Made by a program: the position numbers and the translations under genes
Shown: one piece after another, positions 1,600 to 64,000 of the stretch
How the letters are laid out: every line of letters starts with the position of its first letter
Position numbering within the stretch: position 1 is the first letter of the stretch
Assembly: GCA_008632985.1 (NCBI GenBank)
Contig: QPGO01000035.1
Coordinates: forward strand, 173,899 to 237,898
Direction of reading: 5' to 3'
DNA: 64,000 nucleotides
DNA from: Psammoneis japonica
Lineage: Eukaryota
Notes under the pieces: generated by a model
Told to the model about the DNA's origin: nothing
The model's database searches: none
What the model saw: the letters and a program-made list of their open reading frames with translations, nothing else

Positions 1600-4500
1600 A
1601 CTGCCCAACTCCCAACTCTACCATTGCCATTTCTCGTGGCTCGTGGAGATCTTGGGCGAACCTCTGCTGATAGTCTATGATACAATCACGATGAGGGATG
1701 ATGACCTGGAGGAATTTGTCAGGCAAGTGCAGCTCCCAATCAGCGAGCAGGTCGAAATGCATCGAGATTTTGCGGTGGAACAAGCAGAACATTTTTGGCC
1801 CATGCAAGACAATCGCCTGAAATGTTTCTTTGACACGCACAAGGAAGAATCATCCAAGTTCCCTGCTGGTGATGTTGGATGAGGTCATGCTGGTCATGTT
1901 GTGAAAATGGCTTTGCATTGCCGACCCCCTCTGTTCCAACAAGACAAAGAGTTGGTGGTGTGATGAAGTCCTCTCGAAAGAGAAACTTGATTGGCCTTGA
2001 GATGTTGCTCGGAAGAGTGTGAAGAAAACTTGAAAATCTTCTGTTCAAAGACATGCTGGAAGGACACCCTTTTTGCAAAGGGGATGCAGCAGAATTTTCT
2101 GGGCTCAAAGCGGCGCAGTTCAATGACAGCCCTCACAGTCCAGCAAGGGGTTTTGACCCAAATGCAGAAGGAAGGATCCGTTTCCAACTGTCGCCAGATC
2201 CTTGTGATCAAAAGAGCTTCAAACAAGAAAATCCAACTTGTTTTGGAGAAGCTTTGATGGAAAACTCAGCCCTTCACTCCACAAGGGAGGATGGGACACA
2301 TCCAGAGTGGAGGGGAAAAATGATTGTCAAAGTTGGATGAGAGTCAATGGCTTTTGCACACTGCAAGGTGCCGTGTACAGCAAGTGGCAGAGTTGCACTT
2401 AGAGAATCACCAAGAACAACTGTTGCCAACACAGCTCTGCAGGCAAGCTCCCAGGCACCAGCCAAGAGATCTGCAATCTAAAAAAAGGGCATTGCAGTCA
2501 CCCTGGTCATGATGCTTCGTTGAGTTGTGGGCTTCCTCAAAGGCCACTCATGTGTCTTGCAACATTGTGGTCCACAGAAGTTTGTCCTGCACCATGAAGC
2601 ATTGGCAGTTGGCAAATCTTCTGGCAAATTCTTGGCACATTTTGCCTTGTCATTCATGAGTTTAAAGGTGTCAGAATCACTGACCTGAGACATTCTAACA
2701 AAGAATGTTTTTTTCGTGTTCTTGCTCCAGAGATGTCATCAAGAAGCTCTTGGGTTTTTGTGATGTCAACAACAACAATCAGCTCTTGGTTGTCTCTTGT
2801 GTCCATGTCCTCAAACAAGCTTCAATGTTGCCAAAGCAGATCACAATTTCCAACCTGCAAGCTGCCCAGGTTGCTTTGTCTGTCCCGTCTGATTTGTGAA
2901 TGTGTGTTGCATGGCTGGGGTGCATGGCTGGCCAGCGCAACATGTGAGGTCATGCCAGAAGAGCATTGGAGAATGTGGCCATGTCACTTTGATGCCCAAC
3001 GCCATCTTCCTAAAACCAAAAATCATGCCACAAGCACGTGATGGTCTGTTCTGTCAGTCTTGGCACACCTGCCAAGCTCCTGGGCCTTTGGCACCATCTT
3101 TTCACAGATTGTGGTGCCCTCATCCTCCTCTGCCGATGCTTGCTTTTTTGCACTGTGTTTCTTCTGTCTTTCATTGGAGAGAGACAAGATGATGATGCAG
3201 AGCTCCATGTGCATCAGCAGGGGTGGAGATTGATGCAGCCAGAGCTCTTTTTTTGGTGGCTGGGGCAAAAACTCTCTGTGTGCACCATGTCCCACAACAG
3301 AGCCATGGCACAGCCCTGCCATGGTGGCTTGTGCCTCAATGACTCCCTCTGCACCACTTTGTGAGGCATGGCTGTTGTTTCATTTTCCAGAAATCAAAAA
3401 GTCATTTGATGTGCAATGTGCTGTGCACTCTTGTCCTGTGCCAACTGGCAGCCCTTGGAGAGGATGTGCCACAAAAAGCAACAGAAGTGCATCAAGGCAT
3501 TGCAGGCCATCACACATCCATGCTGGTGACAACAAAGCCAGTTGATTGTGAGAGTGACACCTTGTTGAGAAATGCCTTTGCTCTCTGGGCAAGCACTCGG
3601 CCTCCCCACAAGGGGTCACGTGCAACAGTGAGCAAGCTCAAGAGAGATTTCTGGCACCTCTTTTGAGAGAAGCTAGCATGTTTGCCCAAGCCAGCAGCCC
3701 AAACTGTGACATGCTTGGCTCTGCATCTTTGAGTGGAGATGCTGCTGTTCACAATGGATGGCACATCTGTTGAGACATGGTGCCCATTTTTGCCTGCATG
3801 CAAACACAAAAATTTGTGCTGCCAGCAGCCCCAGCACAGCGTCAGTCAAAAATGTGCGAAGAGGAGAGGGTGCTGCTGAGAGGCGTGTGTGCATGAGAAG
3901 GTGGCATTGTGGACAATTTGTGTGCACCCGCCAGCAGCAGAACCCAGTTGGAACAATGCTGAGTGCAGCATGAGGTGCCTGCTGGGCAGGTTGTGTGTTG
4001 ACACATGGCACGCGAGGACCCACACACTGAGGAGCAGCCAGAGATCCTCAGGGGGGGTCATTGTGGGTGGAAATCTGCTGGGGAGCTGATCTTCTTCGAT
4101 CAAACTTGCGAAGTCCCCCCTTGTTGAGTGTTCTTGTGGTGGGCCTTTGCCCTGGAGATTGTCATGCAGCCAAGGTGCTTGGTGCCCAAGTCATCGAAAA
4201 GCCGCCTCTCTCCCCTCATCACACTCGCTTGCGTGGAGCTTTGTTGAAGAGATTGTTGGTTTGGTGGTCAAAAAGCTTTCTCAGTGCACTTTGCAAGGGT
4301 GTCAGTTTGTTTGCCTGAAATTGCAGCTGGCCACATCCCAGAAAATTGCCCCCCTGCAATCACACGTGGGGTGGCTGTGGCCATTTGTTCAGGTTGGCAC
4401 GCAGAGGATTTGCGCTCGGGAAGCAATGCTCGAGGCTCTTGTTTGGGTGGGAGCTGCTGCACCAAGCACCAACACACATGGCTCTGGTGGATAAAGCAGC

Positions 4501-4660: not shown

Positions 4661-4943
4661 CTCTTTATGTCTAGAGTAGAGCCTAGCTAGCTAGTAGCTA
4701 GTAGCCTGCGCAACGAGAACGCCGTCTGATCGCTGGTCGTGTGGATGGTGGCGGTTCAGTCATGGATTGTGATCCCACTCGGCGATTTCGTGTCATGTTG
4801 TCACAAGCGTGCTCATCTCACCACGAGACATCATCCTGGATCCGAACACACATGTCAACGATCCCGGCTTCTCACAAAAAAAACAAGTCAGCTCGTCACA
4901 ATCACACTCGTCAAAGAATCAATCCCAACAAGTAGGAATCAAC

Positions 4944-12700: not shown

Positions 12701-13361
12701 GTCTTTCTAATATAGGACCCTTGGAACTTCCTGCGCCACAAAAGATTACATGCCTTGTTTTGCTATTGAGGAGCGGCAATGTCAGAGTAATACGTTTTGG
12801 TGGAGGCTTTGGTGAATCGTCAATGGATGCTACCCATTTCGTATCCTCCTTCAAAAGTTCATGCCCCGGAAAGAGAGAGCAGGTGTGTCCATCAGGTCCA
12901 AATCCTAGTACCGCCAAGTCCAACTCTCCACCAGATCGTGACAAGACCTCCCGAACCACAGGCTCGTATTGTTGCGCGACATTGGCTGCGACCATCGAGG
13001 TATTCTCTCGCACAAGAACTTCTTCATCAATTCCATAAACTTGTTCTGGAGGAATGGGTACGTTACTCAGCAAGTGTTTCCGGAGCGCACCCAAATTCGA
13101 GTCGTCGTGTGAACTGGGGACACAACGCTCATCGGCGAGAAGAACATGCCATTTCTGAAACCGCGGTTCTACATTGTGTTTCCAAAACACTCGAGGAAGC
13201 GTCGCGAGGAACGATGGAAGCGATCCCCCGGATAACGCAATTGTGAAGATTCCACGTTCGTCTATTGACTCTGCACAACACTCCACAATACGAGAATTCA
13301 ACAGCTCGGACACATGGGCCTTGGATGGTGCCTCAATCAACTTGGCTGATGGATACGGCAT
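9793..13361 (-). CDS. PGL: 6-phosphogluconolactonase with four tandem catalytic domains; apparent one-base frameshift near 12210
   Basis: Four copies each of ALSGGS, LADERCVP..DSN, LGFGPDGHTCSLFP and DSPKPPP.RITLT. Domain 2 continues across a frame change (GIDEA/ILATQSTAAVATDYEEKV...LDLALLGFGPDGH). Confidence 0.88.
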
Positions 13362-13709
13362 TTTCGTCGAGTCGTATCTTGTGTTTGAAAATTGCTCCCT
13401 ATGTCCCGGAAGCTCCAAAGTGTGCCTTAACCTGCGATCAACCAAAACAACAGATGTAATAACTAGCCTTCTTTATATAAGTACCTGCCGCCGCCAAGTG
13501 GTTCTTTCCTCTCAAGGTGCCTTTTAGGCGGCAAAAGACGACAAGAAGACAACCTCAACTCGCTGTAATGTGACAACGGTATCTTTTATCTTTTTCTGGT
13601 GATTTTTCTGAAGCGCGCAATTCTGGTTTCTGGACTACTTCGACTGCTTTCAGAAAGCTTTATGTAGTAGAAAAATTCCTTCACGAGCAACCATCAACAC
13701 ATCCCAACC

Positions 13710-13814: not shown

Positions 13815-15710
13815 AATTCAACAGGCACAGTCTGCTGCGGTGGACTCGTCTCATGTTTCGCAGTCTTTCTGGAGTGCTGCACATCACAGCTGTAAGCAAC
13901 AGTGGCTTTTGTCAACCACTGTTTGAGCAGTGAGTGACAAGCTTCCACGATGTGCAACGAGTGCACCAACAAGCAACAACTTTGCTGGCTCTTGGTGTGT
14001 CAGCTGCATGATTTTTTGTGCACACTCATCTTTGATGTGCCAGCACACCACAAAAGCACATGCCCAACATGGCCTCCAACAAAGGAGAATCATTTTCTCA
14101 ATGAAAAACAAGCTCCTCCTCCTGGCGCAACAAGCACACGATGCCCCAGCTGCTTTCTCTTTTGCCTTGAGCTGACAAAAGCAGCGCCGCCGGATGTGTT
14201 CTCCTGGCCGCAGGTGGGGCTGATGTCACATCCATCAGAACACATCCAGCTCCACAGCAAAATTGTTGAGCAACAAACGTGTGGATGATTGCCAACAGAA
14301 AAAGAGGCAATTTTGCGACATGTGTTGGGTTCTCCAATGTGCCAAACACCTTGGCACTGACAAGACTCTGTTTCGTCTTGCCTGACCTGCAAAGCTCGAC
14401 GATGCAAGCTTTCGCTTTCGCTTCATCAGTGCGGATTTTTCTCATGAGCCAAAAAAGTCGAGATCGGCACTTTCAACGGCTGAGGTTGCAGCTGACCTCA
14501 CTTGCCGTTAAAAAACAACGGGCCGTTGGGAACGTGCCGATGCGCGCTGTGCGCACAGTCTTTGCCCAAAACTCCGTTGTGGAGAAAAAAGTGGGCGTCG
14601 TCTTCTCAGTTGACAGTCTGAGCCTGAAGGCAAGACCAGATGGCATGGACTGGCCCACTGTTGTTTGGTGATTGGGGTTTTGTGGCCCCTAAATTCAAAA
14701 AAACTCAAATGAGCACATTTTGTTTTTGGTTTGCCCAGGTGCATTCTTCGGCATCAAAGAATGCACCCAGCTTGCTTTTGTTCTCATGAGTGCAGAAAAC
14801 AGAAAGCCTTTTTGGCTTTGCAAAGCAAGGAGCATGAAACAAGCTGGCAGAAAATTGCACGCAGAAATGTGCGCGCGCATGACGTGCGGCACAATCCAAA
14901 AAACTCTTGGCACCACAATCAAGTTTGGGCGCAAGATCCCACATGGGCATTGCCATCAAAACTGTCACATTTTGCTTGGCACAAACAGGCACCTGTGGTT
15001 TCTCTCTTTTCCCCTCAGTTGGTGATTTCAAGTGAAAAGCTTTTGAACCCTCTTCTTGGGTCATTTCAACCCCCTGCTCTGAAACAGCCCTCAACACGTG
15101 AAGACAGTGCTGTGTTTGCCTGGGGCATGTGGGCATTGAAAGTGGACAGAGGAGAGGGCAATTCTTGCAAATGATGAACTTCAAGCATTTTGCTCATTGG
15201 CGGCGTGAACCAAGTTCTGTTGGCCATTGCCAGATGGGATGACGTGGGCGATGTGCCCCAGGCACACCCAGCACCCAGCATGAAAACATGCATGTGCACA
15301 GCTTGGGCCACACATTGAGCAAGATGACAAAAGAGCTGCCAGGTTTTTGTTGCTCAAGGGTTGGTTGAACAAGTTGCTTTTGATCTCTGGAGTGTGAGAA
15401 GTTTCAGCTGCTGGCCCGATTGGCTTGTGGAGATGTGGCATGTGGCTGGCATGTTTGTCAATTTTCTGGGTGACAGGTGTGGCTCCTGGGCAGCCTTTTT
15501 TTTAAGGGCAGCCTGCTGGTGGCAAAAGAGCTCGCCTCTGCCTCAGCAAGAAGTGCGTGATTGTGGTGTGCCAAATGATGCTGCGCTCCCAGCACCGTTT
15601 GCGTGCAACACTTTGTGTTGCATTGCTTCCAAAACATGCTGAGGTTGGAGCATGGAAAAAGTGGTGTCATGCACACCCGCACGATGGGAAGGACCACACC
15701 TCCACCTTGT
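13815..15710. mobile_element. TpA-depleted degenerate repeat/TE relic, family not identified
   Basis: Only a handful of TA in ~1.9 kb; Tyr-free Cys/His-rich ORFs in all frames; TA returns abruptly at ~15715. Confidence 0.55.
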
Positions 15711-16195
15711 TTGTTAGAACAATTAGAGGGTCTAGGGCTATGGTGTTGGAAGGGCTTGATCTTCCATCTCGTCGCGGGTTCGCACGTGCAAACTCACTGC
15801 GCGCGCGGTTCGATCGGTCACTTTCGGAGAAATTCTTTCCCGACGTCAGAAAATCTGCTACCGTCCTAAATTTACGGTATTACGAGACATTACACATTGC
15901 CCACCGAAGAAAGAAACACCGAGAAACCTACTCAAGACATATCAATTTGTGGTGCGCACTTAAGAGTCAATGACCCTTAAGTCATTAATTAGTGTGGGTC
16001 ACCAATCAGAAATGCGGAATTCGTGAATGAGCTGTTTTCTCACGTAGATTTCTACGTACGTCGTATAGTGAATTCACTATCGATATTCTGTACATCAGAA
16101 CAGCGATGGCGAAATGAGCGAAATTTCTTGTCGCTGCCAGAAAGTGACAGCAACAAAACAAGCCAACGCATTTCCCTTTCTGCAACACAGACGCG

Positions 16196-31400: not shown

Positions 31401-33779
31401 TTTCAATCCCGTATGACCCATTCGACTCAAAATTTTGGTAAAATTAGCTAGACTTTGACCCCAGCTAGAGCCACAAATTACACAAGATATGAGCATTATC
31501 AGTCTCATACTCTTTAAACAGATGCCTTGCGAGAATGTAATAGGTATGTATTGTTTGTGGTATCTGGTATTTCAAAATAGAACTAACTTTTCGTGGAGCA
31601 CCTTTATTACACGGGCAAGTGCGAGAGTCAACATTCAGTGATTGGTTAGTAACTAACGTTCACCCCCATTCTAGGCCCCCAAAACTGTCGTGAACTACGT
31701 ATCTGAATATTGTTAGTCGATCGAGGTGGGTATTTGGTTAAAAACGGGGGGTTAATTTTTACACGTGGCATCACGAAGCTGGGACGGAAAGCTGCTGGGC
31801 TCAGCATTGCCGCCGTCAAGAATATTGCAAGTGTGGAAGAAAAGGCTGTCGAGAAAATCAGCAAGACAGATGAAAAGGCTATGGGGGAGATTGCTGCTAT
31901 CTATAGCGAGCAAGGTTTGTCTATGAAACAAGTCGACCATTCCATAACAAAGGCCACAAGCGCCACCGCGCCAGTCGGCAAGTCGTCCAAGAAAGCGACA
32001 AGCACCACCGCTTCCGTGAATAGGCCGAGAAGCAGTGTGTCTGTCGGTGCTGCTGCAGGATCTGCCACGGTGGTCGGTGCTTCCATTGCCGCCATGGCCG
32101 CTGGACTCTCGCCTAAAGATGTGGAAAAAATAAAGGCGGTTGAGAACAACGCCACCAAGAGTATCGAGAGCATCGATGCGAAAGCCGGTGATGACATCGC
32201 CAAGATCTACGAGTCTGAAGGCAAGTGGTACGACACGTCCGATGGCTCCAGCGCTGCTGCAAGCGCTGCGGCTGCTGGGCTAAGCATTGCCGCCGTCAAG
32301 AATATTGCCAGTGCGGAAGAGAAGGCTGTCGAGAAAATCCGCAAGACAGATAAAAAGGCCATGGGAGAGATTGCTACTATCTACAGTGAGCAAGGGGTGT
32401 CTTTGAAACCAGTCGAGCAGTCCAAAACAAAGCCGACAAGCGCCACCAAGTCCGTCGGCGAGTCGTCAATTAAAGCGACAAGCATCACCACAACTTTCAC
32501 AAAGCCATCAAGCAATGCGTCTGTTGTTGCTGCGGCAGGATCTGCCACGGTGATCGGTGCCTCTATTGCTGCCACGGCGGCCGGACTATCACCTAAAGAT
32601 GTTGAAAAAACAAAGGCGATTGAGGACAGAGCCATTGTTGACATAGACCGTATCGCTGACACTGTCAATGAAAGTGCGTTGAAGGCCTACCAGAAGGAGC
32701 AGGTGGAACCCAAAAAGCCTCCGGCGTCGGAAGTCACCACCACAGCAGCTTTAGCGGGACTTAGTGTTGCTGCACAGAGCAAGATTGGAGCAGTAAATCA
32801 AAGAGGAGTGGGGCGAATGGAAGCGGTCGACTCTCAAGCAGTCAAGGATATCGATTCAATCTACAAAGAAAACGGCTTGGCTATGGAGAAATCGCACAAG
32901 CAGACCAAGGCTGGAAACCTCACTGCTTCTCTTGCCGTCACTGGCGCTGCTGCGGCTGCGGCGAGTGCGGGTATGGGGTCTATGGACCTTGCCCTTGTCC
33001 GTGATATCGAGAACAACGCCACCAAGAGCATCGAGAGCATCGATGCAAAAGCCGGTGACGACATCGCCAAGATTTACGAGTCTGAAGGCAAGTGGTATGA
33101 GAAGCCCGGTGGCTCCAACGCCGCTGCAGTCGCTGCGGCTACTGGGCTCAGCATTGCCGCTGTCAAGAAAATTGCAAGTGCAGAAGACGAGGCGAAATGC
33201 AATATGGATGCAACTGACCGAGAGGCTGCCAACACGGTGACCGAGGCTGACGAGGCACACACTGCTCAAATGCACAAGTACGCAAAGGAGGGGCGCTCGG
33301 AAGAATTCATCGACGGCGAGGAGAAGAGAGCCTCAGACAAGTATGACTTGATTGAGAGTGAGGCAAACGAAAACATTGCCAAGTTGATCGATAGTGCTGC
33401 CAACAGCATTGATGAAATATACGCGAAGGAAGGTAAAACGCGTACGAGGTCCAGTAACGGAGCTTTCACAGAACGAGGAAAGGCCGGCGCCATACTTACA
33501 GCTGATGCCATTGCTGCAGCCACCCGCGGAGCTGAGGATCGCAAACAGATGATGTTTGCCAACAAAAATCGTACTTGTCCCGAAGAAGAATACAAGAGCG
33601 ACAACAACCCGCTCAGCTCCATCGGCAACGGAGTTCATCTTGCTGTTTACGACGTTGGTGCCGGAGTGGCTTGGGCAGGGAAGTCAATAACGGGAGCCGA
33701 CTTTGAAGGTCCGCCGGAGTATGACGCTCGCGCTGACTACACCCCTGAGCAGAGAGCCATGTGCTGCCCCGCTCCGTGA
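28452..33779 (+). CDS. Large Ala-rich hierarchical tandem-repeat protein, interrupted by an insertion at 30394-31790 (likely disrupted allele)
   Basis: Exon 1 ATGAA (28452-28456), intron GTAAGA..CTAAC..TGCAG to 28538, giving MKLGKSARKLFCGCG. ~290-aa units repeat on both sides of the insertion; removing it plus one GCTGCT restores GAAVAAAAGLSIAAVKNI in frame. Confidence 0.75.
30394..31790. mobile_element. 1397-bp non-coding insertion with 6-bp target-site duplication GCTGCT
   Basis: GCTGCT at 30388-30393 and 31791-31796; the insert is AT-rich with no long ORF; only CCCAG/CTGGG near the ends as a possible TIR core. Confidence 0.7.
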
Positions 33780-33945
33780 GTCACGTGTTTTGTGTCGATC
33801 AGTAACACTCTTTTAGGATGTGTGATAGCATGTTGTAAGGAAGTAGAGTTTTAACATATATAATCAAGCTGCAACTCTTCTGATAACATCCACCGCAAAG
33901 TACCTCTACTCTCAATCATCTGCAGTGCGCCGCCCTAGGATCTAT

Positions 33946-34097
33946 TTCACAATTGAACATGTCTTCTGACGTCGCTCATCTGATGATGTGGACGATGATT
34001 CAGATCTTTTCTCTACACAAGTTCCGGAAGATCGATGAGCACTCTAAACATAAAGCTCACTTTTTTCATCTATTGAATAACGTTACGCTAGCTTAGT
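33946..34097 (+). repeat. Left copy of a 152-bp direct repeat (LTR or LTR fragment)
   Basis: Aligns without gaps to 38168-38319; differences are almost all transitions. Confidence 0.88.
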
Positions 34098-37000
34098 GCA
34101 CAGTGAATTCACTTCACGCGTTTTTTTTTTCACGATGACTTCCAACGATGCTGCGACACCCTCCTTCGAGCTCACCGGACAATGGGGAACCCCGAAATGC
34201 TTCAAGGGGCTCACTGCGAAGTTTGAAGTTCAAGATGTCCCCGATGACATCCACAGTGGAATGCACGAGAAGAAAGTGACATCTTTCAGCAGTGAGTGTG
34301 GTGATGACAACCCTCGTTTTCATGTGATTTCTTTTGAGACAGGTGAAGGAGGTCTTTGACCACAAGCCCTGTGAAGCAGGCCCATCCAAGTTCAGCGTCT
34401 TCTCCACTTGCCTCATCGGCACAGCAAAGACCAATTGGGAGTGAGCGTGACAGGAATTTGAAGTTGCGGCACTGGAGACTGAGGATGTGTTCCAAGCCGT
34501 CCTTGAGACGTTCACAAGACACATTGCTTCAAGAGCGACATGCCTCGACATGACCAGATCGAACATCTGAAGACCGTCAAGAAACTGTCCGGAGCAACTC
34601 ACAAACAGTTTGTCTTGGCAACAGACGGCATGACAACTGACCTTCAGCAGTTTCCACTGGACGTTGATGATGAAGGTGAAACGCTGGACAATCATCCCAC
34701 CTTGTTGGACCACGACTGCATCAACATGCTCATCAAGAGTGCACCACAAGCTTGGTGTGATGAGCTCACGGCAAACAGCATGAACCCTCACAACCTCACC
34801 AAAAAGGACTTGGAAGAGCAATTCCACTGCATGGAGAAAGTGGAGAAGTGCAAGGAGAGATGCCACAAGCGCTCCAATGACCATCGTCACGGAAGCGACG
34901 ACCATGACAAAAAGAAGAACGATCACAAGATGTCTTGCAAGGGAATGTCTGGATGCAAGATTCCCTGGAAACCCAAGTGCTGCAACTTTTGCAAGAAGTC
35001 CGGACACAACAACAAAGAGTGCAGTCACCCGGGACATCCGCGTCACAAGAAAGCATCCTTCAAACATGATGACCGAGACAAAACCGACCGCCACGATGGG
35101 GATTGGAATGACCGTTGCTGCAAGCGCCACTGTCGCATCTCTGACAAGGAATTGGAGCAATCATGCTGCTCCTCGAGTGATGAATCCTTGGACTGCAATG
35201 ACAGACGAGCACGCAAGATCTGCCGTTCCGAGAAACAAAATGGAGAATGTGAACCCAGTGGCAAACAATCTGATGACTGCTGGCTCAACTGCTTGCAAGA
35301 CAAAATAGATCACACAAAAGCGGAGCGTGGGAACTCCGCAATCACGAGAAATTTCTTGTGTCCGATCAGGCCGATTGGCACCAAAATCACAAAGAAGAAA
35401 CACAAAACAGCAGTGCTGGCTGCAACAGTGCCACCAGAAGACATGACACAGTCACCAGATCAAGCACTCTGTCGTTGCCAGATTCTGGAAGCTCTGCTTC
35501 CCTGATGCACAAATCTCAAGCACCCCAGAGATTTTGGCAGAAAGTCAAATCTGCCAGCTTCAATGCAAAAACCGGTGAGTTCACATGCTGTCATAGAATG
35601 GCATGTGATGTTGCTCTGCCAGAACTGTCAACATCAAAGACCTTTAGATGGTCTTTTTGTTGTGTCGATGAGACAGAGGGCAAGACTCATGGCTTGATTC
35701 TTGGAAGTGACTGTCTCAAGGAACTCAAGATCAACTTGTTGTGTTCATCCAAAACCATTCAGTGGGGCAACTCATGGGCTCCAATGCAAAGCCATGATGA
35801 AATGAAGCCTGGTTCAGAAGCTGAAGAAGCATTCTGGTGGATGCAATCAGATGAACATGACATCCACGCAAGCAAAATTTTAAAAGATGCAGCTTCGCAC
35901 GCGACCAAAATCTCAGACGCCAAGTGCGAGAAAGCAGATCTCAACAAGACAGTCAACGAGTGTTCCACACTCGATGGAAAACAAAAGAAAAAATTGCTCA
36001 AAGTGTTGAAGAGCCATGAAACACTCTTCGATGGCATGTCAGGCAACTTCGACAGCAAACCAGCCAACCTGCACATCAAACTGGGCAAAGACGTGCCGTT
36101 TCATGCAAAATGAGCATTCAGCATGCCGCAAATCCACAAGGACACACTGGCAAAAGAGATTCAAAGATTGGTCTCTGTGGAAGTCTCACAATGAAATGAC
36201 AGCAGCAGGCATGCATGCCCTGCTTTCATCACACCCAAGCAAAACAAAACTGTCCACTTTGTTTCTGATTTCAGAAAATCAAACGCGAGATTAAGGCGTG
36301 AACCATGTCTGCCACCAACCATGCAAGAGCTGTTGCAAAACCTGCAAGGGTTTAAGTGTGCTGCTTCTTTGGACCTGAATGTGGGTCACTGCACTGTCAG
36401 GCTCATGCCTCAAGCACAAGAGATGTGTGCACTGTCATTGCCCCATGGGGGAAATTCAGCTGCCAACGCCTGCCAATGGGAGTGGCGCCGGCGTCAGACA
36501 TTTTTCAACTCAAAATGATGCAACTTGTGAAAGGACTAGAGGATTTTGTTGGCACTTGCCTCAACAACCTCCTTCCAACAGGCCAGGGCCCCTTTGATGA
36601 GCACCTTGAGCAACTCAAAACGGTCTTGGATGAGCTGCAACGCGCCGGGCTCAAAGTCAACGATGCAAAATCAAAATTCTTTGCTGCTGAGATTGAACAT
36701 CTTGGTTTCTGGCTCACTGGGGAAGGAATGAAACCTGTGGGCAAAAATGCAAAAGCAACAGATGAGATGAAATGACCAGAAACACAAAAACAACTCCGCT
36801 GTTTCATTGGCACGGTCAATTTTTACCACGACATGTGGTGATCACGATCACACTTGCTCGCACCACTCTCAGAATTAATGTCTCCAGCAAGAAAAGGAAA
36901 AAGCTGAATTGGCTCCCAACACATGAGAGAGCATTTCAAGCTGCAAAAGAGGCACTGAGGCAAGACGTGATGCTCGCGCACCCCGACTTCTCCAAAAAAT

Positions 37001-38167
37001 TTGCTGTCCACGTCGATGCGAGTGATTTTCAACTTGGCGCCATCACATCCCAAGAGGGCAAACCAATTGCTTTTTGCAGCAGGAAGCTTGACAAAGCCCA
37101 AAGAAACTGTGCCACTGCAGAGAGAGAACTTCTCTCTCCATTGCAGAGTGCCTGCAAGAGCACAGAAACATCTTGTTGGGCCACGAAATTGAAATTTTTA
37201 CAGATCATGTCAACCTTGTTGCTTGCAAAACGGCATCGTCAGCACGTGTGCATTGCTGGCACCTGTTTGCAGAAGAGTTCAGACCCACCTTGATGTTTGT
37301 CAAGGGAGAGGAAAACGTTGCAGCCAATGCACCAAGCCGGCTTGACAAACAGATTCTGACTAAGACAGTCGAAGGCCTTGACAGCAGCACGCACCCAAAA
37401 CAATCAAAATCAAAGCGGCCGGAGCAAATTGTGCAATCCGAGCAGCTCTTTGTCCAAACCCAAACTCGAAAGAAAAGAAAGCTTGCTGAAAATGCTGGGG
37501 CCCTTGCAGAAGAGGCTCTGCCGCAATCCCAGCCAGCCTGCAAATGCAGGTGCCTGGAGAAAAAAGAGGAGACAGCTCCCACTGATGGCTTGCCCATCAG
37601 TCACAAGACAATCACGAAACACCAATGGAAAGACACAAAAACATGTGAGAAGCTAGAAACAGATGGCAACTGCATGGTCAGATAGACAGGCAAAAACAAC
37701 GTCACATCTTTTGCAATGGCAATCAAATGCCCATGCCGTGACCGCTCTGAAAACCAATCGTGGATTGGCGCCACATCAATCTCTGTCATCCTGGTGCAGA
37801 TCGAACAGAAGAAACAACACGACAAAGCTTTGCATGGGAAAAATTGCGCAGAGACGTGAGAGACCAAGTGACACATTGTGACAAGTGTCAATGGCTCAAA
37901 AAGCACACCAAAAAATGTGGCCATCTTCCTGCCAAAGCAGCAGAATGTCATCCGTGGCGCAAATTGTGTGTGTGGACCTCATCGGACCTTGCAAAGTGCA
38001 GACCGCTGATGGCAAAATTCACAAACTCCAAGCCCCATCACTGTGATGGATCCAGCCTCATCCTGGTTCGAGATCAAAGCAATGCCAGATGCTGCGAGCC
38101 AGACGGCAGCACTGACAGTCGACCAAGAATGGCTTTGCCGCTGCCCCCCACCCCAGGATCTGTGTGG

Positions 38168-38319
38168 TTCACAGTTGAGCACATCTTCTGATGTTGCTCA
38201 TCTGATGATGTGGACGATGATTCAGACCCATTCTCTGCACAAGTTCCGGAAGATCGATGAGTGCTCTAAACACAAAGCTCACTTTTTTCATCTGTCGAAT
38301 GACACCACGCTGGCTCAGT
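38168..38319 (+). repeat. Right copy of the 152-bp direct repeat
   Basis: See left copy; 7 of the 8 TA dinucleotides of the left copy are TG or CA here. Confidence 0.88.
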
Positions 38320-38344
38320 CCATCATCTCTCTCTGCCATGGATT

Positions 38345-41300
38345 GTGTTGGTGGAGAGGGTCATTCCCACTTAGATGCAGCACATCTGTGCTGTGCACTG
38401 TGCACTCACATGGAATCAGCACTGGAGCCCACAGAGCACACCACAGACTGAAGCACACATCACGCGAGGTCGTGGGCAGTCATGGTGTTGATCGCACCCA
38501 CTCACACTTCTGGTCGTAGAAAAACTGCGGAGGCGCTTCCGCTCACCAGAATTGAGAGTCGCTCCCCGAAACACAAACGAGTGAAGCACGGCGTGACACT
38601 GCTGCAGACAATGATGAACAACGCCATGCATTTCTGTGCATTGGCACGTTCCATCCTCTTGCAGTTTTGCAATGTCGAGTGCAGGCTTGTGATTGACACC
38701 TTTGTTGCACGTCCTGAACTTTGACAGGGGCCCAGAATTCTCTTGCAAAAAACAATCAACCTTGCCATTGCAGCAGTCGTCAAGGCACTGTGCGACCCCA
38801 GTGGCTTGACATGCAAAGCTTTTGATGGGATCTTCAAAGCTGATCTTTCACGTCCTGGCACGCATCTGCAAATGCCTGAACCTTGGTGGCAGCATCCTTG
38901 GTGGATTTAAATTCAGATTGGCAGTCGCGATTTACAGCACAATGGTGTCACTGCTCGGCTTGGCTTTTTTGGCATTCTTTTCACCTTGAGCTGGGTCAGC
39001 AGCAGCTCGCTTCTCCCCTGTGCTGTTGGAATTGGTGAGCACCTCAACACTTGTTGCAGACTGTGCAGCACGCACTCTTTCTGCAGCCAACTTGTCATGC
39101 ACTCGCGTTGCCATCTCGGCCTTGCTAGATCCCAGCTCACGAATCAAGAATTGTTTCATTTCTTCTTCATTGGACAAGTCTGGAGTGCATGATGTGGCTT
39201 TCGTGTGCAGTTGCTTGACTGTCAACAAGTTGCTCTGCTGCACACCAAGCACTTCCAATGACGCACCAATCAGCAAGCTTTGGCAGAGGCTTTCTGCACC
39301 TGGCTGAGTCTGCCATGATGGATGCAAATGAAGAAAGATGTTTCATGTGGATGGGTTCCCATTCACCAACATGGTGAGTGTCCTTGTCCTTTTCCCTGTC
39401 AACTAGAGCCTTCAATGTGCCACTGTCAGAAAGGCAAGTTGCGGCACTTGAAATGTGCTTGTGATGCGCGCTCAGCAAAATGTTCGCTTCTGCCATCTCA
39501 CCCAGCCACCCTCAGTCACGCGCAGAGCCCCATTTGGCAAATGCGAAGCCAGTCCTTCAAAGAATGTGTGTTCCAATGATTTCTGTTGACATCTTGTCAA
39601 TGTCCCTTCCCAGAATGGTTTCACAAGCAAACTTGAAAAAATCCAAGAGCGAGTCGCATGGAAAATTTTCGTCGTGATGTTCCTTGTTAAGCTCCAACTC
39701 GTCTCCAGTGGGAAACAACTTGCCCGACTTGATGCCAGAACAATGCATCCAAATGAGAATGGCAACAGTTCCTGAGAATTCAGGACATTCTTCATCGTCC
39801 CAAACCATGAAATGAAGATCCTTGTTGTCACGCTTGCCACGGATTTTGGTGCAGAGACCCTTGACGGCATTCTCCGACACTTGGAAGCACTCGGTGACAA
39901 ACTTCTCAACCGTCATCTCCAAAACCTCTTCGCAGTGTAGAAATGACTTTGTGCCAACAATGATGACAGTCCAAAGCATTCGATGATGCTTGTCATCATG
40001 TGACAAACAGCCCGGCAAGAATGCAAAAGCACTTCCAGCTTCGTGGCAGTTCGATGCACAGTCTTGCCATTGGTCAATTGCAGCCTTGAAATCTTCATGT
40101 TTGGTGGCATTTCCACGACGCCAGAAATGAGGATCACCAGGGTGTTTGTGGCATCCAGCACCCTTTTGGGCTTCCTCCTCGCCAATCTCATGACAATCAG
40201 CACACATTTCTTGGCATTCGCCATTGGTCGTTTCGCAGTGCTTGTGCACGTGAAGCTTGCTCATGGCAGTGCGGAAGAGCCCAGTGGAAGAGTGACCTTT
40301 CCAATCACCAATGCAGGTGATGGGGTTTCCATGCCAGTCCTTTGCTGGAGCGTTTGTGCGGTTGTGAAGCAGTGGTTTGGCCTTTTGTTTTGTCCTGAAC
40401 TGAGTGAACTGGATTGCTGCATCCAAATTCAAAGGAAAAGGATCTGATGGACACAAGTCACGTGCCAGCAACATGGCACTTTCAGAGTCACCAATGAGGT
40501 GACAGAAGTCACGAAAAAGCCTCCATGTGGGTTCACACCGTGCAATGGAACTGGTCGCAATGGTGTCAGTGCCTGCTTTGCCGGTCTTTTTGTTCTTTCC
40601 TGTGATTGCAAGTTTTGGTGACGTTGTGTCCAGCTTGCACTTCATCAGCGTCTTGTTCAAGCTCGACTCACCAAGAGAGTGGGTTTGCTGCGTCATGTTG
40701 AATCCGCCGCCCTTCAAAATGACATAAGATGCCATCGTCGAGTGTGTGTTTTCTCTCTCGCGAACAAGAAATGCAAGTTTGGGTTGATTTTCTTGTGGTG
40801 CACCCCTCGAGTTTTCGAATGACCCTTTGGACAAAGCTGCTCAGGGATGAAAGAAAGTCAAAATTTACTTGTCAGTGCACCGCTGTGCACTGGAAATCAT
40901 GCCAGTGCACTTGAAGTGCACCGACCCCTTCAACCAAGCACACGTCACTGTCTCAAAACATTGCCCCCCCTCTGGTGCCTGCAGATGCAGGGATCTCTAT
41001 CAGGTTGTGAGCCTCGCCTTCGCTCAGCATGAGGAGGGGCCACACCACATCGCGAAACAACAAAACACCTTCAGCACGTTGTTGTCGACACCGGCGGTGA
41101 GCATTTTCAACGCAAACACCTTCGCTCTGTCGACGCGAATGGCATGTTCATTGTCATTCATCTTGTCGCTTTCGTTGGTGTCATCAGCCGACGTTTCGCA
41201 TGTGGCGTGGCATGCGCACTCTGCTTGCGCAGCGATCCTCTCCTGCTGCACATTGTGCACTGGGAGTGTGGGTCAGCTTGTTGCCGGAGTTGCAGGGTAG

Positions 41301-42458
41301 AAGCGCGGCAGCACTTAAAATGCAGACATTGGGTTTTGCACTTGCGCAGCAATCCTGCGTGAGGTGTGCCATCAAAGATCCAATGTCAACTGCTCCGTGC
41401 GCCGTTGATTTCTTTGAGCGCAACGAAACATCATGATGGCCCCCGCGAATGGCACCTGTTTGAAGACGGCATCATTTTGGCAAGAAAAATTGTCGTTGAT
41501 GTGGGCCGCTCTGTCCCAGGCACCAGCTCAAGATGGCAATTCGCCGATTGCGACTGCAACTGACACCCCACATGGACCCTCAGCTGTCTCTGCTCCATCC
41601 GCCGAGTTTGCTGCTGCACGCGATGCGACTCGCCCTGTCATTGAGTTGCATCCAACAGCGACAACTCCATCCACTGCAACCACCCCACCAGTTGACCCTT
41701 GTTCTTTTTCTGCAAATGTCAAGACTGACCCATTGGCCATTTTTAAGATTGCTTTGGGCAAACTTGGCAAGCCAATTGAGCACAAGAAAGCTGGTGTTGC
41801 TGTTGACCGAGCAACAATGGCGTGCATTGTGAACAAGGTGATTGGTTCAATCAAAATGCTCATCAATGCATTGCATGGCACAAGCTTCTGTCTGTGTGCT
41901 GCAAGCTGATGGCTTCTCTGCACACCGCGAGAAAGAGGCAAATGAATCTGTTGTCTTTTCTGAGAAGTCAATTGACTCGGATTCTCCTCACCCCAACCCT
42001 GCCAATGTTGCAAGCCTCCCGGGTTGCACCACTTGGAGTCATTGTCAGTTGTTGCCTTGGCTGATCCCTGGTGACTTGCTGCTGCCAAATTGGCACTGCT
42101 CCGGTCGCCCACCTGATTTCCTCTTGGATTGGACCAGGTCTGGACGGCCTCCCGACAGTGCACTCTGGTGTCATCCCGGCAGACCTCCCAGTTTGCCATG
42201 TCATTCATGCTCAGAGCAATCTCCCAGTCTGTTAATTGTTGGCGATTCAATGGATTGGTTTAACGAGTGGACGATTGCATGGTGTCGGGCGCAGAAACGG
42301 ATGCACTGTTTCCACTTTGCTGTCTGTCTGTCTGACAGTCATGACTCTCACCACTTCTCTTTTGCACTGGCAGATCTTCAATCCTGTTTTTACCAGGCTT
42401 TTGATTCTCCTAGTGTGGGGGGGTGTTAGTGGAGAGGGTCATTCCTACTTAGACACAG
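38345..42458 (-). mobile_element. Degenerate tyrosine-recombinase (Crypton-like) element bounded by 36-bp direct repeats
   Basis: Repeats 38345-38380 and 42423-42458 match at 32/36. The minus-strand ORF relic ~39170-40830 shows YR motifs: FLHCEE (L-R..E), KIRGKRD, IGTHIL*RTG (H-x-x-R), SAHHK and ATCLSD (catalytic Tyr position). Confidence 0.72.
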
Positions 42459-46341: not shown

Positions 46342-46628
46342 TTTTTATCAAGTAAAGACTGTATCAATAATCTGCATCGACATTTTTTCTATATCGCAAA
46401 GGTGGATTTCAAGAAAACGGAAGACTGAAGTAGGCTGATACGTTCGATGGCAACCGACTGTGAAACAGGTGAAAACTGAAAACCCAACGCGGCCAGATTG
46501 TGAGCACTGAGCAGAAACCATTATTATCCTCATTGTAAACGAAGCTTTAGATAATTAATTCAACTGACTATATAGTCTAATGCATTGAATATTATTCATT
46601 TAAATTAAACGCACGAAAAATATATAAA

Positions 46629-48185
46629 TCTGTATTAAAAGTTTGTTAAAGTTGATGACTCCTGGCGGGCGAGCCGGGCGGGTTCCGGTCGAGCTTTCGT
46701 CAGCTCATCGTCGGTTGGTCTGCCCCCATGGGGACATCCTGTCCTCGATCCATCCTCCATCGATGCTGGTGGAAAACATGGCTGCCACTCTGCTAGAGAG
46801 AGCACAGTGTCCCAGCTCATGTGGGCAGTGCAAGATAAAACATCAACAATCTGCACCAAAGAGGAGCACACACAGCAGCACCAGCAGGGGGTGGGCGCGG
46901 CAAACCTGCCCAGGGGTTCACAGCCGGCGCTGCTGTGCGTGTGGTTTGGCCCAGGAGTGTGCAAACAAACAAACAAGGCACAGCAACACAAGAACAAGAA
47001 GCTGCAAGTGCTCTGAGGCACAAAAGGCCCTCATTGCTGCTGTGCTGGCGGCTGGCGGCCGGCAGTTGATTTTGTGGCTGCACAGGTGCTTGCATGGCGA
47101 GCAATGAGCACCAGCCACAATGGCATGCTGACCCAGGTTTTCCACCTTCCAAGAAGAGAAAAAAGTCTTTGGAGGCTGTGGCAGCACAGCCTGCATGTTT
47201 CCTCAAGAGAGATTGTGGCTTTGTGGTGCACGTGGTGCAGCGCTTTTTTCAATGTCGCCCCCAGCGTTGATGGCTCCCACTCCAACACGGCGGGAGAACT
47301 TCACAAAGTTTGCTGCTGGCAGAGTTTAGAACTGCTGATGCAGTGTCAACCAGGCAGCAAATGTGCCATGGCTCTTGGCTCTTTCCCTCAGCTTCAAGTG
47401 GCACTTTGCCCTCTTCTTTCTTGCTGGCGGAAGTTCGCGTTTGGGAGCTTGATCTTTTGGCTCACACAGCTCTCTTTTTTCTTGTTGCCAAGCTGGTTTG
47501 CAGGTCTTTCTGGCTGGAAAGGGACCCAGGATGAGGCGCCAAAGTCAGGAGTGCAGAGTGCAGCAGCAGCTCCTTTGGGTGGTGCAAGATTGCTGACCAG
47601 CAAGGGGATCTCTTCTTGTGGCAAGCGCGAGGCACACTTTGTCCCCACTTGTCCGCTCTGAATCTGGGGCAGCCACTTCTTGCATGCAGAAAGATGTTCA
47701 GTTGAGTGTGGACAGAAAGATCATGATGCAGTGTCTCACTGCAAAAAGCCTTCACACACAAAAGCAACAAATGCATCGCACTCCTTTCTCAGGTCACTGG
47801 CTGACTTGTGTCAAAACATGCTCTGCAAATGAACCGACAGCACACCATCAGCAGTTCGCTTGCCTTGCATTGTTCACCGAAGTGTTGCAAGCATCTGTCA
47901 CAAGCATGAGAGCATCACTCAGTGCTCACAAGCAGCGGAAAGGCGTGCCGCGTGCCAGTCATCCATGGCACAAACAGCCTTTTGTCCTGAAGTGGCCAAG
48001 TTGGATCGTTTCAACGAAAAACTGAGATCTTCAGCGATTTCGCTTGTCGAGTGTCGCATCACCCCGATATTTTGGGGGGCTTGGGTCTTAAATTTAAGAA
48101 CAGGCAAAACTGTATGTAAAAGTGTGACTTTTAATTGGAAAAAGCTAGAAACCATGCACACTCGAGAGTGAGCTCTATAAACTAG
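46629..48185 (+). mobile_element. Candidate non-autonomous Helitron, TpA-depleted interior
   Basis: A|TCTGTATTAAAA at 46628/46629; imperfect 18-nt hairpin GCACACTCGAGAGTGAGC at 48156-48173, then CTAG|T at 48182-48186; interior nearly TA-free. Confidence 0.55.
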
Positions 48186-61252: not shown

Positions 61253-62089
61253 TAGAAGTGATCCCTGGCAAACGGAACGAGGGAGCGAGGTAAGGTTGTC
61301 AGAGTCTTGCATTATTGGTTGTAGTGATTCATTACTGAACTCTTTGATGCTGTAATCTAGGACTCTGTAGGGGTCGTCAACGTTCGACATGGTGTCATGG
61401 ATGCCGACAGCGGGTCTCGAGCAATGCACGAATGTGCCGCGATATTGGGTCTAAAGCTTGCGAATGATAGATCGGAGAACACACTGGTTTTAACGGATAT
61501 GCCGAAGGGAGTCAATAACAGGAGGAATTGTTGTTGATCTTTGCAGAGTTTGGCGAAATCGAAGGTGCTGCCGTCGTAGGAAATGGTCGCGGTTTTCGTA
61601 AGTTATCGAATTAGACTCGCTTGCTCCCTCTCGACGTCATTGAGCTAACGCTGTTTGTTCGCTTTCTTAACAGGACTGGTTCGTTTCAAGTCAATCACAG
61701 ATGCAGAGAATGCCATATATCCCACGCACGTACATAAATTAGAGCCAGGGGGGTGGCGATTCATCAGAGTGTGCGCTTTGGGCGCCGGCCTTAGTTTCGC
61801 TTGTATGAACACTGAAGAATAATCCAACACGGCTTGAAATGATATTGATAGACTATCACAAGTTAGGACCTACGGCTCGAGCACTGCGACAAGCTTCTTT
61901 TCCGCTTCAGTCTTCTGCTTCTTGGTGGCAATTAGTGCCTGCTCTTGCTCAGCGAGCTTACGTTTCGTCCGCTGAATTTCCACTTCCTTGTATTCAACTT
62001 CACGATTAGCTTGCGCCACTGCCCGTTCAGCTCTTCCCTTCTCGTTGCACGTCTTTTCATGTTCGGCAGCACAGAAAAAAAAATCCCCC

Positions 62090-64000
62090 TGAGGTTGCTT
62101 GGCAAGTTTTGGCTGTTGAGTCCAACCCGTCATGGACGTTCTGTCTTGTTCAGACCTTTGCAGGAAACTCATGGCAGGTTTGTTGAGGACCTTTTTGGCA
62201 TGCTGGCACCCTCAAGAGTTTTGGGCTTGGCTTTGACCTGCGGGCAACTCTGTCACCACATTTCATGATACAGTGACCTTGCTGTGCGTTTGATTGGAGC
62301 AGCAAGCTGCCTTTTCCCACAAGAACACTCTGGCAATGACAAAGGCTCAGCACAATGTGAAGATGTCTGCAGAACATGGAAGCTCCAGTCATCACATTGT
62401 TCATGCACAAGTCTGCCTTGGATGTTTTTCAATGCATCCTTTCAAGGGGACACTCTGGAGAATTGTCAGTGCCTGTCTTCAACACAGAAGAAAGTGCTCT
62501 GTCTGGCACTTGGATGACAGAGTTTTGGGTGTGTCTTGGTGCATCTTGAGAGGATCATTTGAGGTCCAGGATTTAGTCATGTTTTTTGGTTCATCAGATG
62601 ACCATGGACTCTCACATTCTTTGACTCAGTCAAGGCACTTGCAGATTTGCTGAATTTCAAGCAACAATTTGCATCATTCAATGATTGTTGCATCATTGAT
62701 CTTAAGACTGAAAGTCACTTCAGTGGCGCCAAGGCTTGGGAAGTTGTGGCAGCCTCTGTCAAAAGGAAATTTGAAGACATGCATGATGCGCACTCACCAA
62801 TCCAGGATGAGCAGGGTGCAGACAAGTTTGTTGTGGTTTGGGATTTGCTGAAGAGAGCCATGAAGTTGTGAAGAGAATGTTTGTTGCATGATTCAAAAAC
62901 CACCCTTCTGTCAACTGTGCACAGTTCTCCAGAAGATTGCAAGCACAAGTCCTGCAAGCATTCGAGCTTGGTTGGCAGCATTGAGAAAATGGCAAACTCC
63001 AGCCATGTGGCATTGATCAATAAAATCAAGTCTCATGTGTTCACTTCAGAGTGCCAGACAAAGTGAGCCTGTCATGGAGGCATCTCCAGCAAATGCTGGC
63101 TGCAAGCTCCCTTCCTCCACCTTCTTGCCTCACAAGCAGTCAGCAGAAACATCCTCTTTTTGCACACATTTCTGTGTGCAAGAAGCAGATGTTGCACATT
63201 TGGTGGGCCCTCTTGGCACATTCAATGAGCCAAAGGTCTGTGTCACATCTGGCTCATCTTGGATGTGGAGCACAGCTGTGCATCAAGTTGGGGCTGCAGC
63301 CTTGGTTTGTTGGTTCCCAGCAAGACTTTGGAAGAAAAAAAAAGGAACCGCGTCATCAGAGACACATCTCTGTCAATCTGAAGGGGGGGGGGGGGGCAAC
63401 TCTCTCAGCCATCAGTGCTTGGCTGAGTTTCACCTTGTTTTTGGCTCTGAGTGATGGTGCCTGTTTGATTGCTGATCTCCCTCACAACACTTTGGCCTCT
63501 TTCCCTGCCACCCTGCAGGTCTCTGTCTGACCATTGCTCCAGTTGAGGTTGTGCACTGACATTTTGCACTCTCTTGACACCACTTCCCAGCTCTGGAGGC
63601 ATCGCTTTCCCTGCCAAAAGCTGAAAAGCCCTGCTGTTTGTAAAGTGCCTTTGTCTTGCACGTGGGTCAAGGTGGCTTGACAGCTCAGCTTGGCGGAGTT
63701 GGGCACCCCTTGCATCCTCCCAACTCCTTCCTCAACCCTGCTGCTCCCCCACTTTTTGGTGCTCACCATCCCCAACCTGAGCACATGGCACCCTGTTGGG
63801 ACAGCTGGCATGAGCACCCATTTCCGTGGCCTTTTCCACCACTGTGGAATGTGCCTGAGTGGACTCCCTCCATCCGTTTTGCTTCAAAGAGCATCGGCAG
63901 CAAGAAACTTGGCCACTTGGGAACAAAGTCAAGCTCCAGATCTTCCACCTGGCTGGCAGGGCTTGAAGAGGCTGGTTGGAAGAGTGGAGAGAGCAAGAGC
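62090..64000. mobile_element. TpA-depleted degenerate repeat/TE relic running off the window end
   Basis: Near-absence of TA; broken plus-strand coding relic around 62650-62950 (KAWEVVAASVKRKFEDM...FKNHPSV); family not identified. Confidence 0.55.

Follow-up and report, generated by a model that had tools for sequence, protein, structure and literature searches.

The DNA considered here is a window of 64,000 nucleotides (nt) from the diatom Psammoneis japonica (assembly GCA_008632985.1, contig QPGO01000035.1, positions 173,899 to 237,898 of the forward strand), in which five islands flanked by host genes have lost almost all of their 5'-TpA-3' (TA) dinucleotides. The largest island is occupied by two abutting mobile elements, a degenerate Ty3/Gypsy-type long terminal repeat (LTR) retrotransposon and a Crypton-like element. 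When the ratio of observed to expected TA (o/e) was scanned in sliding 1-kb windows along this one stretch, values of 0.02-0.09 were found over about 34.1-42.3 kb and over four further islands at about 1.7-4.5, 13.9-15.7, 46.8-48.1, and 62.0-64.0 kb, against about 0.4-0.7 in most 1-kb windows of the flanks and about 0.35 in a few coding ones. Delimitation of the islands by TA-free runs gives the following limits, numbered from the first letter of the stretch and without assignment to a strand:

34095..42232: main TA-free zone, with 28 TA in 8,137 nt, TA o/e 0.054 and CpG o/e 0.56
1682..4491: TA-free island I1, with 7 TA, TA o/e 0.040 and CpG o/e 0.23; no match to its content
13894..15714: TA-free island I2, with 3 TA, TA o/e 0.026 and CpG o/e 0.45; no match to its content
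46837..48067: TA-free island I4, with 1 TA, TA o/e 0.015 and CpG o/e 0.43; no match to its content
62008..64000: TA-free island I5, running into the end of the window, with 5 TA, TA o/e 0.040 and CpG o/e 0.16; no match to its content

The five islands hold 44 TA in 15,992 nt (o/e 0.015-0.054), whereas 1,756 are present in the 48,008 nt outside them (o/e 0.55), in agreement with the original prediction, which had described near-total TA loss in an 8-kb block and four other islands between ordinary flanks. The longest run without TA measures 1,212 nt in the islands and at most 386 nt elsewhere, and the left border of the main block is sharp, with a TA each 5-30 nt up to position 34094 and the next one at 35306. 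The o/e of TG is 1.71 in the islands and 1.18 outside, that of CA 1.64 and 1.19, and that of CpG 0.43 and 0.96, while the shifts of the remaining dinucleotides are all at most about 0.2. At the protein level, 9 island open reading frames (ORFs; 1,977 amino acids, aa) were compared with 14 ORFs of the flanks (7,503 aa). Tyrosine (Tyr) makes up 0.05% of residues in the former and 2.28% in the latter, where its content had rightly been called normal, whereas Cys and His are more abundant in the island ORFs, at 5.06% and 5.97% against 1.43% and 1.85% in the flanking ones. Because TA-free DNA excludes TAA and TAG, TGA is left as the sole stop codon and long spurious ORFs appear in all six frames, such as one of 348 aa on the minus strand at 34114-35160; TGA-only, Tyr-free islands of this type thus yield spurious ORFs and conceal transposons from homology searches.

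Several further observations concern the islands themselves. Very TA-dense stretches abut several of their borders, for example at 4666-4702 (9 TA in 37 nt), 46522-46647, and 34045-34094, and the elements may have been inserted into TA-rich intergenic DNA. LTR-like pairs were sought at I1, I2, and I4 and none was found, and the only repeats returned by a search for copies shared between islands were the LTRs and the terminal Crypton pair of the main block. Near the two borders of I4 lies a 14-nt perfect inverted match (46498-46511 / 47918-47931, E-value 0.002), which could be the terminal inverted repeat of a DNA transposon or a chance occurrence.

The features recognized in and around the main zone are as follows:

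33921..38322, plus strand: degenerate Ty3/Gypsy-type LTR retrotransposon, recognized by Pfam domains, tblastn, termini, and a target-site duplication (TSD)
33916..33920, plus strand: left copy of the TSD, TCATC, with an identical 5 bp at the other flank
33921..34100, plus strand: 5' LTR of 180 nt, TG...CA, largely spared, with 10 TA and 9 CG
36195..36775, plus strand: reverse transcriptase (RT) remnants in two frames, with LDLNVGHC, and CLNN where YxDD is expected
36766..37685, plus strand: RNase H remnants in two frames, Pfam E-values 1.3e-22 and 9.2e-7
37751..38138, plus strand: zinc-binding domain of the integrase and beginning of its catalytic core, found with Pfam Integrase_H2C2 and tblastn; the core stops at the 3' LTR
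38136..38322, plus strand: 3' LTR of 187 nt, mutated, with 1 TA and 6 CG
38323..38327, plus strand: right copy of the TSD, TCATC, a perfect match to the left copy
38337..42418, minus strand: CryptonS-like element with termini CATGG and TGTGG, called from its termini and the relatives of its recombinase
38837..40840, minus strand: broken tyrosine-recombinase-like gene with motifs of its relatives and Cys at the catalytic Tyr position

The Pfam search took in 141 stop-to-stop ORFs from the five islands, and matches were confined to ORFs at 35.3-38.2 kb, where they follow the Ty3/Gypsy order of RVP, RVT_1, RT_RNaseH/RT_RNaseH_2, and Integrase_H2C2, with RVP weak (E-value 0.0059) and RVT_1, at 29.0 bits, just under its cut-off of 29.6. 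The TG...CA ends and the shared TCATC flanks define an LTR retrotransposon with its TSD at 33921-38322, so that the hallmarks observed comprise TG...CA LTRs, a short TSD, and the order protease (weak), RT, RNase H, and integrase. The frames are broken by frameshifts, and since the shortened integrase core is truncated at the 3' LTR, the Gypsy element is a defective copy. Two other interpretations of the LTR repeat (33930-34100 / 38148-38322), a nested insertion and a captured empty site, were dropped on the evidence of the TSD and of the TATGG-type termini of the neighboring element. The altered motifs LDLNVGHC, CLNN, LAHPDF, AFCSRKL, QRNC, and WLCRCP reported earlier are all found in the translations. 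For WLCRCP the reading itself is present, and the Tyr-to-Cys change proposed there is unconfirmed because the motif straddles the start of the 3' LTR at 38136 and the alignments of relatives stop at 38138.

CryptonS elements carry terminal direct repeats of 5-6 bp and encode a tyrosine recombinase with an R-H-R-Y tetrad, without an RT. The second element begins 14 nt beyond the Gypsy copy, on the opposite strand and across a spacer without TA, so that the two are convergent with abutting 3' ends, and it is as TA-free as its neighbor. Its 427-aa recombinase-like ORF has four relatives at 36-46% identity that share GTHxLRKTA and SARHK...TYL motifs, and a conserved C-terminal region is shared by the three relatives longer than 700 aa. 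At the catalytic Tyr position, the window reads ATCL against the invariant TYL of the relatives, and the Cys predicted there was therefore found. No RT was detected in the element by tblastn with RT/RNase H relatives, and the recombinase-like protein matched nothing in Pfam, in PHROGs, or among PDB sequences; its AlphaFold2 model has pLDDT below 50 across the catalytic part, and in Foldseek, where no hit reached E <=0.001, Cre appeared only at ranks 23 and 50. CryptonS of oomycetes and of a diatom are described as typically ending in TATGG and as having a conserved C-terminal region (PMC3212892). The termini CATGG and TGTGG correspond to TATGG after TA>CA and TA>TG, an assignment that presupposes the mutation, and the minus-strand element is accordingly called CryptonS-like, a putative membership that termini and relatives partly support.

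The direction of change can be established by comparison with relatives. For the recombinase, 186 columns were retained in which at least 3 of 4 relatives agree, and 131 of them are kept in the window; conserved Tyr was kept in none of 12 columns (6 Cys, 2 His, 3 Phe, 1 Ser), whereas conserved Cys was kept in 8 of 8 and His in 5 of 5. The Gypsy pol region was compared by tblastn with 151 relatives, namely the best 150 of 14,137 (E <=0.001) and one more, and its conserved Tyr was kept in 1 of 13 columns as against 164 of 244 columns overall, some overlapping-frame columns being counted. Replaced codons were then polarized by the consensus of the relatives over 392 columns, after removal of overlapping-frame duplicates. 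Among the 118 differences, 81 can be explained by a single base change, and these comprise 20.5 TA>TG and 11 TA>CA changes (together 31.5), 13 CpG>TG/CA changes, 7.5 other transitions, with A>G/T>C outside TpA contributing only 3, and 29 transversions, as expected for families only 26-50% identical. The RT motif exemplifies both classes, as the step from YxDD to CLNN combines Tyr>Cys at TpA with Asp>Asn at CpG. The predicted direction from TA to TG/CA is thus borne out, as is action on both strands, given that TG and CA products are both present, and the notion of a targeted mutator of A:T pairs in inserted DNA is supported.

The same footprint exists in other assemblies. Among 155 proteins related to transposable elements (TEs) in public data, with a median Tyr content of 3.3%, 11 have 0-2 Tyr, nine of them (at least 120 aa and up to 424 aa) having none and two having 1-2; at 51 conserved-Tyr columns these 11 proteins have 25 Cys, 16 His, 8 Phe, 1 Pro, 1 Trp, and no Tyr. 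A sense-strand bias was also considered, since Tyr>Cys outnumbers Tyr>His by 11:4 in the window and by 25:16 among the public proteins. It was set aside as suggestive but confounded, because Tyr codons are TAY, which involves the +1 pyrimidine rule, and because host genes have a baseline of TG over CA.

Suppression of UpA under selection is known in some viruses, and elements could in principle have been selected to be free of TA, for instance to escape a UpA-directed nuclease. Such intrinsic avoidance is hardly credible for this locus, since the copies are dead, with catalytic residues replaced (CLNN in the RT, Cys in the recombinase) and frames broken, since the relatives are normal in TA and Tyr, and since the LTRs of one insertion differ. 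Six metagenome loci with recombinase relatives have a TA o/e of 0.47-0.74, which indicates that the recombinase family is not TA-poor by nature. Ultraviolet TA photoproducts and GC-biased gene conversion were likewise rejected, as they fail to explain a TpA-only, island-limited, and sharp-bordered pattern.

A second component, CpG decay, is superimposed on the loss of TA, and its separate existence, which had been part of the original prediction, is upheld by the low CpG o/e of the islands (0.16-0.56 individually) and by the 13 CpG transitions among the 81 one-step differences; among the replacements due to CG>TG/CA are Arg>His/Cys, and Asp>Asn at catalytic sites. Within the main zone TA has been lost uniformly, but CpG only in patches, its o/e ranging over 0.13-0.93 per 300 nt, and the islands differ in CpG and not in TA, so that the two processes are separable. 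Near-normal CpG (o/e 0.85-0.98) is seen at 34000-34299 and 40900-41499, beside neighboring 300-nt windows at 0.13-0.5. TpA loss was the faster of the two: its -ln(fraction remaining) stands to that of CpG in a ratio of 1.5-4.5, which is a minimum given the saturation of TA. Decay of CpG driven by 5-methylcytosine would produce the CpG deficit and the CG>TG/CA changes observed here, but it covers only the CpG part of the pattern, which is patchy and slower than the loss of TpA.

The timing of the process is recorded in the LTR pair. Both LTRs of one insertion are identical at integration, and the difference within the present pair (10 vs 1 TA) therefore places the change after integration, in the chromosome, and not in RNA or complementary DNA (cDNA). 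Over 180 aligned positions there are 27 mismatches. Nine of the ten TA of the 5' LTR are replaced in the 3' LTR by TG (5) or CA (4), the sole TA common to both having the context CTAA, and the other mismatches comprise 4 CpG transitions, 4 mismatches in two TG/CA doublets, and 10 further changes, to which indels are added. The doublets are best explained as an ancestral TA mutated independently in each LTR, and they lead to an estimate of about 14 ancestral TA per LTR, about 4 being lost from the 5' LTR and about 13 from the 3' LTR, with an estimated eight-fold difference in exposure of the 3' relative to the 5' LTR. In the pair of repeats of about 35 nt that follow the termini of the Crypton-like element, the copy within the zone has TG/CA where the outer copy has TA, and one doublet occurs. 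As this RT-less element is equally TA-free, no RNA stage is required. When TpA, CpG, and doublet sites are set aside, 8 LTR differences remain in the comparison of 33930-34100 with 38148-38322; 6 of them are A/T>G/C in the 3' LTR, with an A preceding the changed A in 4 of the 6, and there may be a weak secondary activity at ApA in the 3' LTR.

ADAR and APOBEC enzymes act on RNA or on pre-integration cDNA and leave strand-biased tracks. They resemble the proposed process in being deaminases that hypermutate selfish nucleic acids, whereas the diatom changes occurred after integration, on both strands, and also on a non-retro element. Editing before integration, either of the retroelement RNA by an ADAR/ADAT-like enzyme or of its cDNA according to an APOBEC logic with an adenine deaminase, would suit the sharp borders of the TA-free zones, and ADAR-type enzymes favor a U ahead of the edited A (10.64898/2026.01.13.699255, Discussion). 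It is nevertheless very improbable, as the LTRs differ at nine TA versus TG/CA sites and at two TG/CA doublets, the 14-nt spacer and the adjacent non-retro element are TA-free, both strands are affected, and comparable mutations of Bigelowiella natans, according to the preprint text, arise in integrated DNA.

The same sites bear on an artefact of assembly or base calling, in which modified island DNA would be miscalled, with TA and CG read as TG/CA. The coincidence of CpG and TpA effects in the same islands would fit, yet such an origin is scarcely to be expected, because a single dinucleotide would have to be miscalled about 95% of the time, and according to a context rule. In addition, the islands also carry frameshifts, 10 further LTR differences, and indels, and two TG/CA doublets distinguish the 5' LTR, although spared, from the 3' LTR. 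The Tyr-to-Cys/His footprint recurs in 11 independent public protein clusters, and the B. natans calls are described as deriving from Illumina data.

The zone at 34095-42232 is not coextensive with the element ends. The 180-nt 5' LTR of the Gypsy copy is left out of it, and 4 TA are kept in the last 185 nt or so on the right of the Crypton-like element (42233-42418), upstream of that element's minus-strand gene. About 180 nt on the promoter side of both convergent elements is thus near-normal in TA, and the interval between is TA-free. Two readings fit this sparing, one in which the process tracks each transcription unit and one in which about one nucleosome escapes at each block edge; since the elements are convergent, both predict the same sparing here. 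The earlier description of the process as repeat-targeted is not supported, as no sign of a need for repetition was seen and one member of a repeat pair, the 5' LTR, has escaped most of the change.

The surviving TA reveal a sequence preference (Y, pyrimidine; R, purine). Among the 44 survivors in the islands, 28 are YTAR, compared with 299 of 1,760 outside (odds ratio 8.6, p 1.6e-11), whereas RTAY accounts for 2 of 44 compared with 522 of 1,760 (p 7e-5). With both strands counted, the base after A is a purine in 80% of survivors and 44% outside, and the second base after A is an A in 56% and 26%, respectively. The residual relative to the outside level is 0.02 for TAT, 0.04 for TAC, 0.11 for TAG, and 0.18 for TAA. 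As survivors are mostly YTAR, the preferred target is T-A-pyrimidine. The most enriched product in the islands is TGC/GCA (1.79-fold), which explains their raised GpC. A mass-balance estimate of the edited TAN was dropped as inconsistent (TAC above 1, TAA about 0), because host composition is a poor proxy for the ancestral TE.

Fungal repeat-induced point mutation (RIP) converts C to T mostly at CpA, thereby creating TpA, and needs duplicated sequence and a sexual stage. Both systems produce in-situ, dinucleotide-specific transitions that permanently inactivate mobile DNA within sharp limits. The diatom islands, however, lose TpA (TA o/e 0.04) and gain CpA and TpG, so that the pattern is opposite to RIP, as the original prediction had held, and a repeat or sexual-stage requirement is not evident here, with one LTR of the pair spared.

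The further statement in the original prediction that no named pathway was known for such a pattern has been superseded by a mutation-accumulation study of 15 lines of B. natans (Mettrop et al., bioRxiv 10.64898/2026.01.13.699255). According to the text of that preprint, 231 of 302 nuclear point mutations were located in two regions of integrated viral DNA, and all but one of them (230 of 231) were A>G or T>C, in every case at TpA. They arose during culture in integrated DNA at a rate of about 6e-7 per site per generation in some lines only, the mutation rate being raised about 1000-fold and episodic among lines. The same text reports 324 TpA-depleted coding sequences enriched in reverse-transcriptase and DDE domains, specifies TpA only, with no wider context, and proposes an ADAT2-like candidate without identification of the enzyme (10.64898/2026.01.13.699255).

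The two cases are alike in A>G/T>C changes at TpA only, on both strands, in integrated foreign DNA with ordinary flanks, and in long-term TpA depletion with CpA/TpG enrichment that clusters with reverse-transcriptase and transposase genes. They differ in host, a chlorarachniophyte in one case and a diatom, thus a stramenopile, in the other; in the targets, which are viral in B. natans and Gypsy and Crypton-like elements in the diatom; and in degree, with a Rho of 0.45 given for a region of a nucleocytoplasmic large DNA virus in B. natans and a saturated TA o/e of 0.02-0.05 in the diatom islands. The TpA-only spectrum, the sharp borders at the mobile main block, and the action after integration were all observed here, and the diatom process may be read as being of the same kind as the TpA hypermutation of B. 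natans, so that the shared signature would indicate the same kind of genome defense in a second lineage. Literature searches for the signature in diatoms returned nothing relevant, among the papers listed by a broader dinucleotide search the only relevant ones concerned fungal RIP, and the preprint text contains no occurrence of diatom, Phaeodactylum, or stramenopile. The kind is therefore already known, in the literature found by these searches only from one preprint, and the diatom is a new lineage within the stramenopile-alveolate-rhizarian (SAR) supergroup.

The natural substrate of TadA and ADAT2 is tRNA. These enzymes and the editors derived from TadA convert A to I, which is read as A>G, with a T or U before the target A, as in the diatom islands. 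Engineered TadA variants and editors are described as having an inherent preference for YA, with YAY above YAR (PMC12528748), which resembles the ranking of TAY over TAR observed here, and DNA activity of natural ADAT2 is limited to a few proteins, as cited in the B. natans preprint (10.64898/2026.01.13.699255). By analogy with these enzymes, the favored, though conjectural, candidate for the enzyme involved is a DNA adenine deaminase of the TadA/ADAT type.

Taken jointly, these considerations make it probable that the islands reflect a mutator of the B. natans kind that acts on TpA in mobile DNA after integration, with TadA/ADAT2-like adenine deamination as its putative chemistry. Under this proposal, mobile DNA would integrate into the diatom chromosome, after which a localized mutator would turn 5'-TpA-3' into TG or CA, by changing its A to G on one strand or the other, until TA is nearly gone and Tyr codons and other TA-containing codons are destroyed. 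The mutator would prefer T-A-pyrimidine and proceed several-fold faster than CpG decay in the same DNA. Chemically, a TadA/ADAT2-like deaminase would convert adenine in DNA enzymatically to hypoxanthine, and this deaminase may be recruited to silenced or transcribed foreign DNA.

Several points weigh against this proposal in whole or in part. The context preference was measured against host TA standing in for the ancestral composition of the TEs, and the product side is only partly consistent with it, as TGC is clearly enriched and TGT is not; moreover, the product rule predicted from the context bias holds at no more than 4 of the 6 LTR sites that are informative. In most substrates of eukaryotic ADAT2/3 the base after A34 is a purine, unlike the preference in the diatom islands, and the likeness to B. 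natans is one of signature alone. The base calls come from one assembly sequence, which bears on an artefact of base calling, and the mobile nature of I1, I2, I4, and I5 is called into question by the finding of no Pfam or TE-protein match in them.

The same in-situ process at TpA could also have another chemistry, involving either a mispairing base modification, such as TET/JBP-type thymine hydroxylation or adenine modification on the palindromic TpA, or Pol-eta-like patch repair at WA. The symmetry of TpA and the near equality of the LTR strands (5 TG vs 4 CA) would suit a modification, and the residual LTR differences described above are such as a WA-type process gives. In dinoflagellates, 5-hydroxymethyluracil (5hmU) may prefer TpA. 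A dinoflagellate TET/JBP enzyme is described as making 5hmU that silences TEs, in a paper that makes no mention of TpA (PMC11572971). Such chemistry is regarded as unlikely, given that the transitions are nearly purely A>G/T>C at TpA, both here and in the B. natans preprint text, that the ranking of T-A-Y over T-A-R parallels TadA-type active sites, and that there is no evidence of such a modification in diatoms. As to Pol-eta in particular, AA and TT are undepleted, with an o/e of 1.28 and 1.25 in the islands against 1.16 and 1.16 outside.

The host genes in the window are long and mostly uninterrupted ORFs. A glutamyl-tRNA synthetase ORF at 7995-9611 on the plus strand has diatom homologues, with a best identity of 77%; the nine hits whose source names reveal an organism are all diatoms, among them Chaetoceros, Thalassiosira, Cyclotella, Stephanodiscus, Nitzschia, and Odontella, which places the window in a diatom absent from the protein collection searched. 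The start of this ORF is overlapped by a WHEP-TRS/GST_C ORF (6907-8028, plus strand); the interval 6907-9611 probably represents a single gene, interrupted by a short intron or a change of frame, like the diatom homologues of 700-940 aa. At 9793-13472 on the minus strand, two adjacent ORFs of 806 and 454 aa contain 3 and 2 6-phosphogluconolactonase/glucosamine-6-phosphate isomerase domains, respectively, and internal repeats of about 900 nt with 70-78% identity, forming an unusual tandem array of one enzyme domain. Paralogous FG-GAP repeat genes occupy 21414-23060 and 24535-25821 on the minus strand, with a spacing of about 3.1 kb and segments that are 77-81% identical. Just upstream of the main block on the plus strand, ORFs of 651 and 690 aa (28456-30411 and 31707-33779), without a Pfam match and rich in Ala, Ser, and Lys, have common repeats of about 300 nt (64-92% identity) and look like a paralogous pair of repeat proteins.

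These findings imply that TpA hypermutation of foreign DNA is not confined to one species, and the 11 Tyr-poor retroelement proteins in public data hint at its wide occurrence. Two distant genomes are now available for finding a shared enzyme, and diatoms are a group with established genetic tools. The constraints provided by this locus, namely the T-A-pyrimidine preference, the timing from the LTR pair, the absence of an RNA stage, the separability from CpG decay, and the upstream sparing, go beyond those in the preprint text. The sparing of about 180 nt points to transcription-coupled or nucleosome-scale targeting, and since it affects the promoter side of both elements, recruitment may track the transcription unit of the element. 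A more speculative extension, doubtful at present, is an ancient defense common to diatoms and chlorarachniophytes, and perhaps SAR-wide, in which a T-A-pyrimidine DNA adenine deaminase would be recruited to newly integrated mobile or viral DNA, perhaps through its transcription unit and not its physical ends, and would remove TpA until no coding capacity is left. If true, these lineages would possess a mirror image of RIP needing neither repeats nor sex, and with it an adenine editor of double-stranded DNA that occurs in nature; base-editing work would have a use for such a deaminase, if real.

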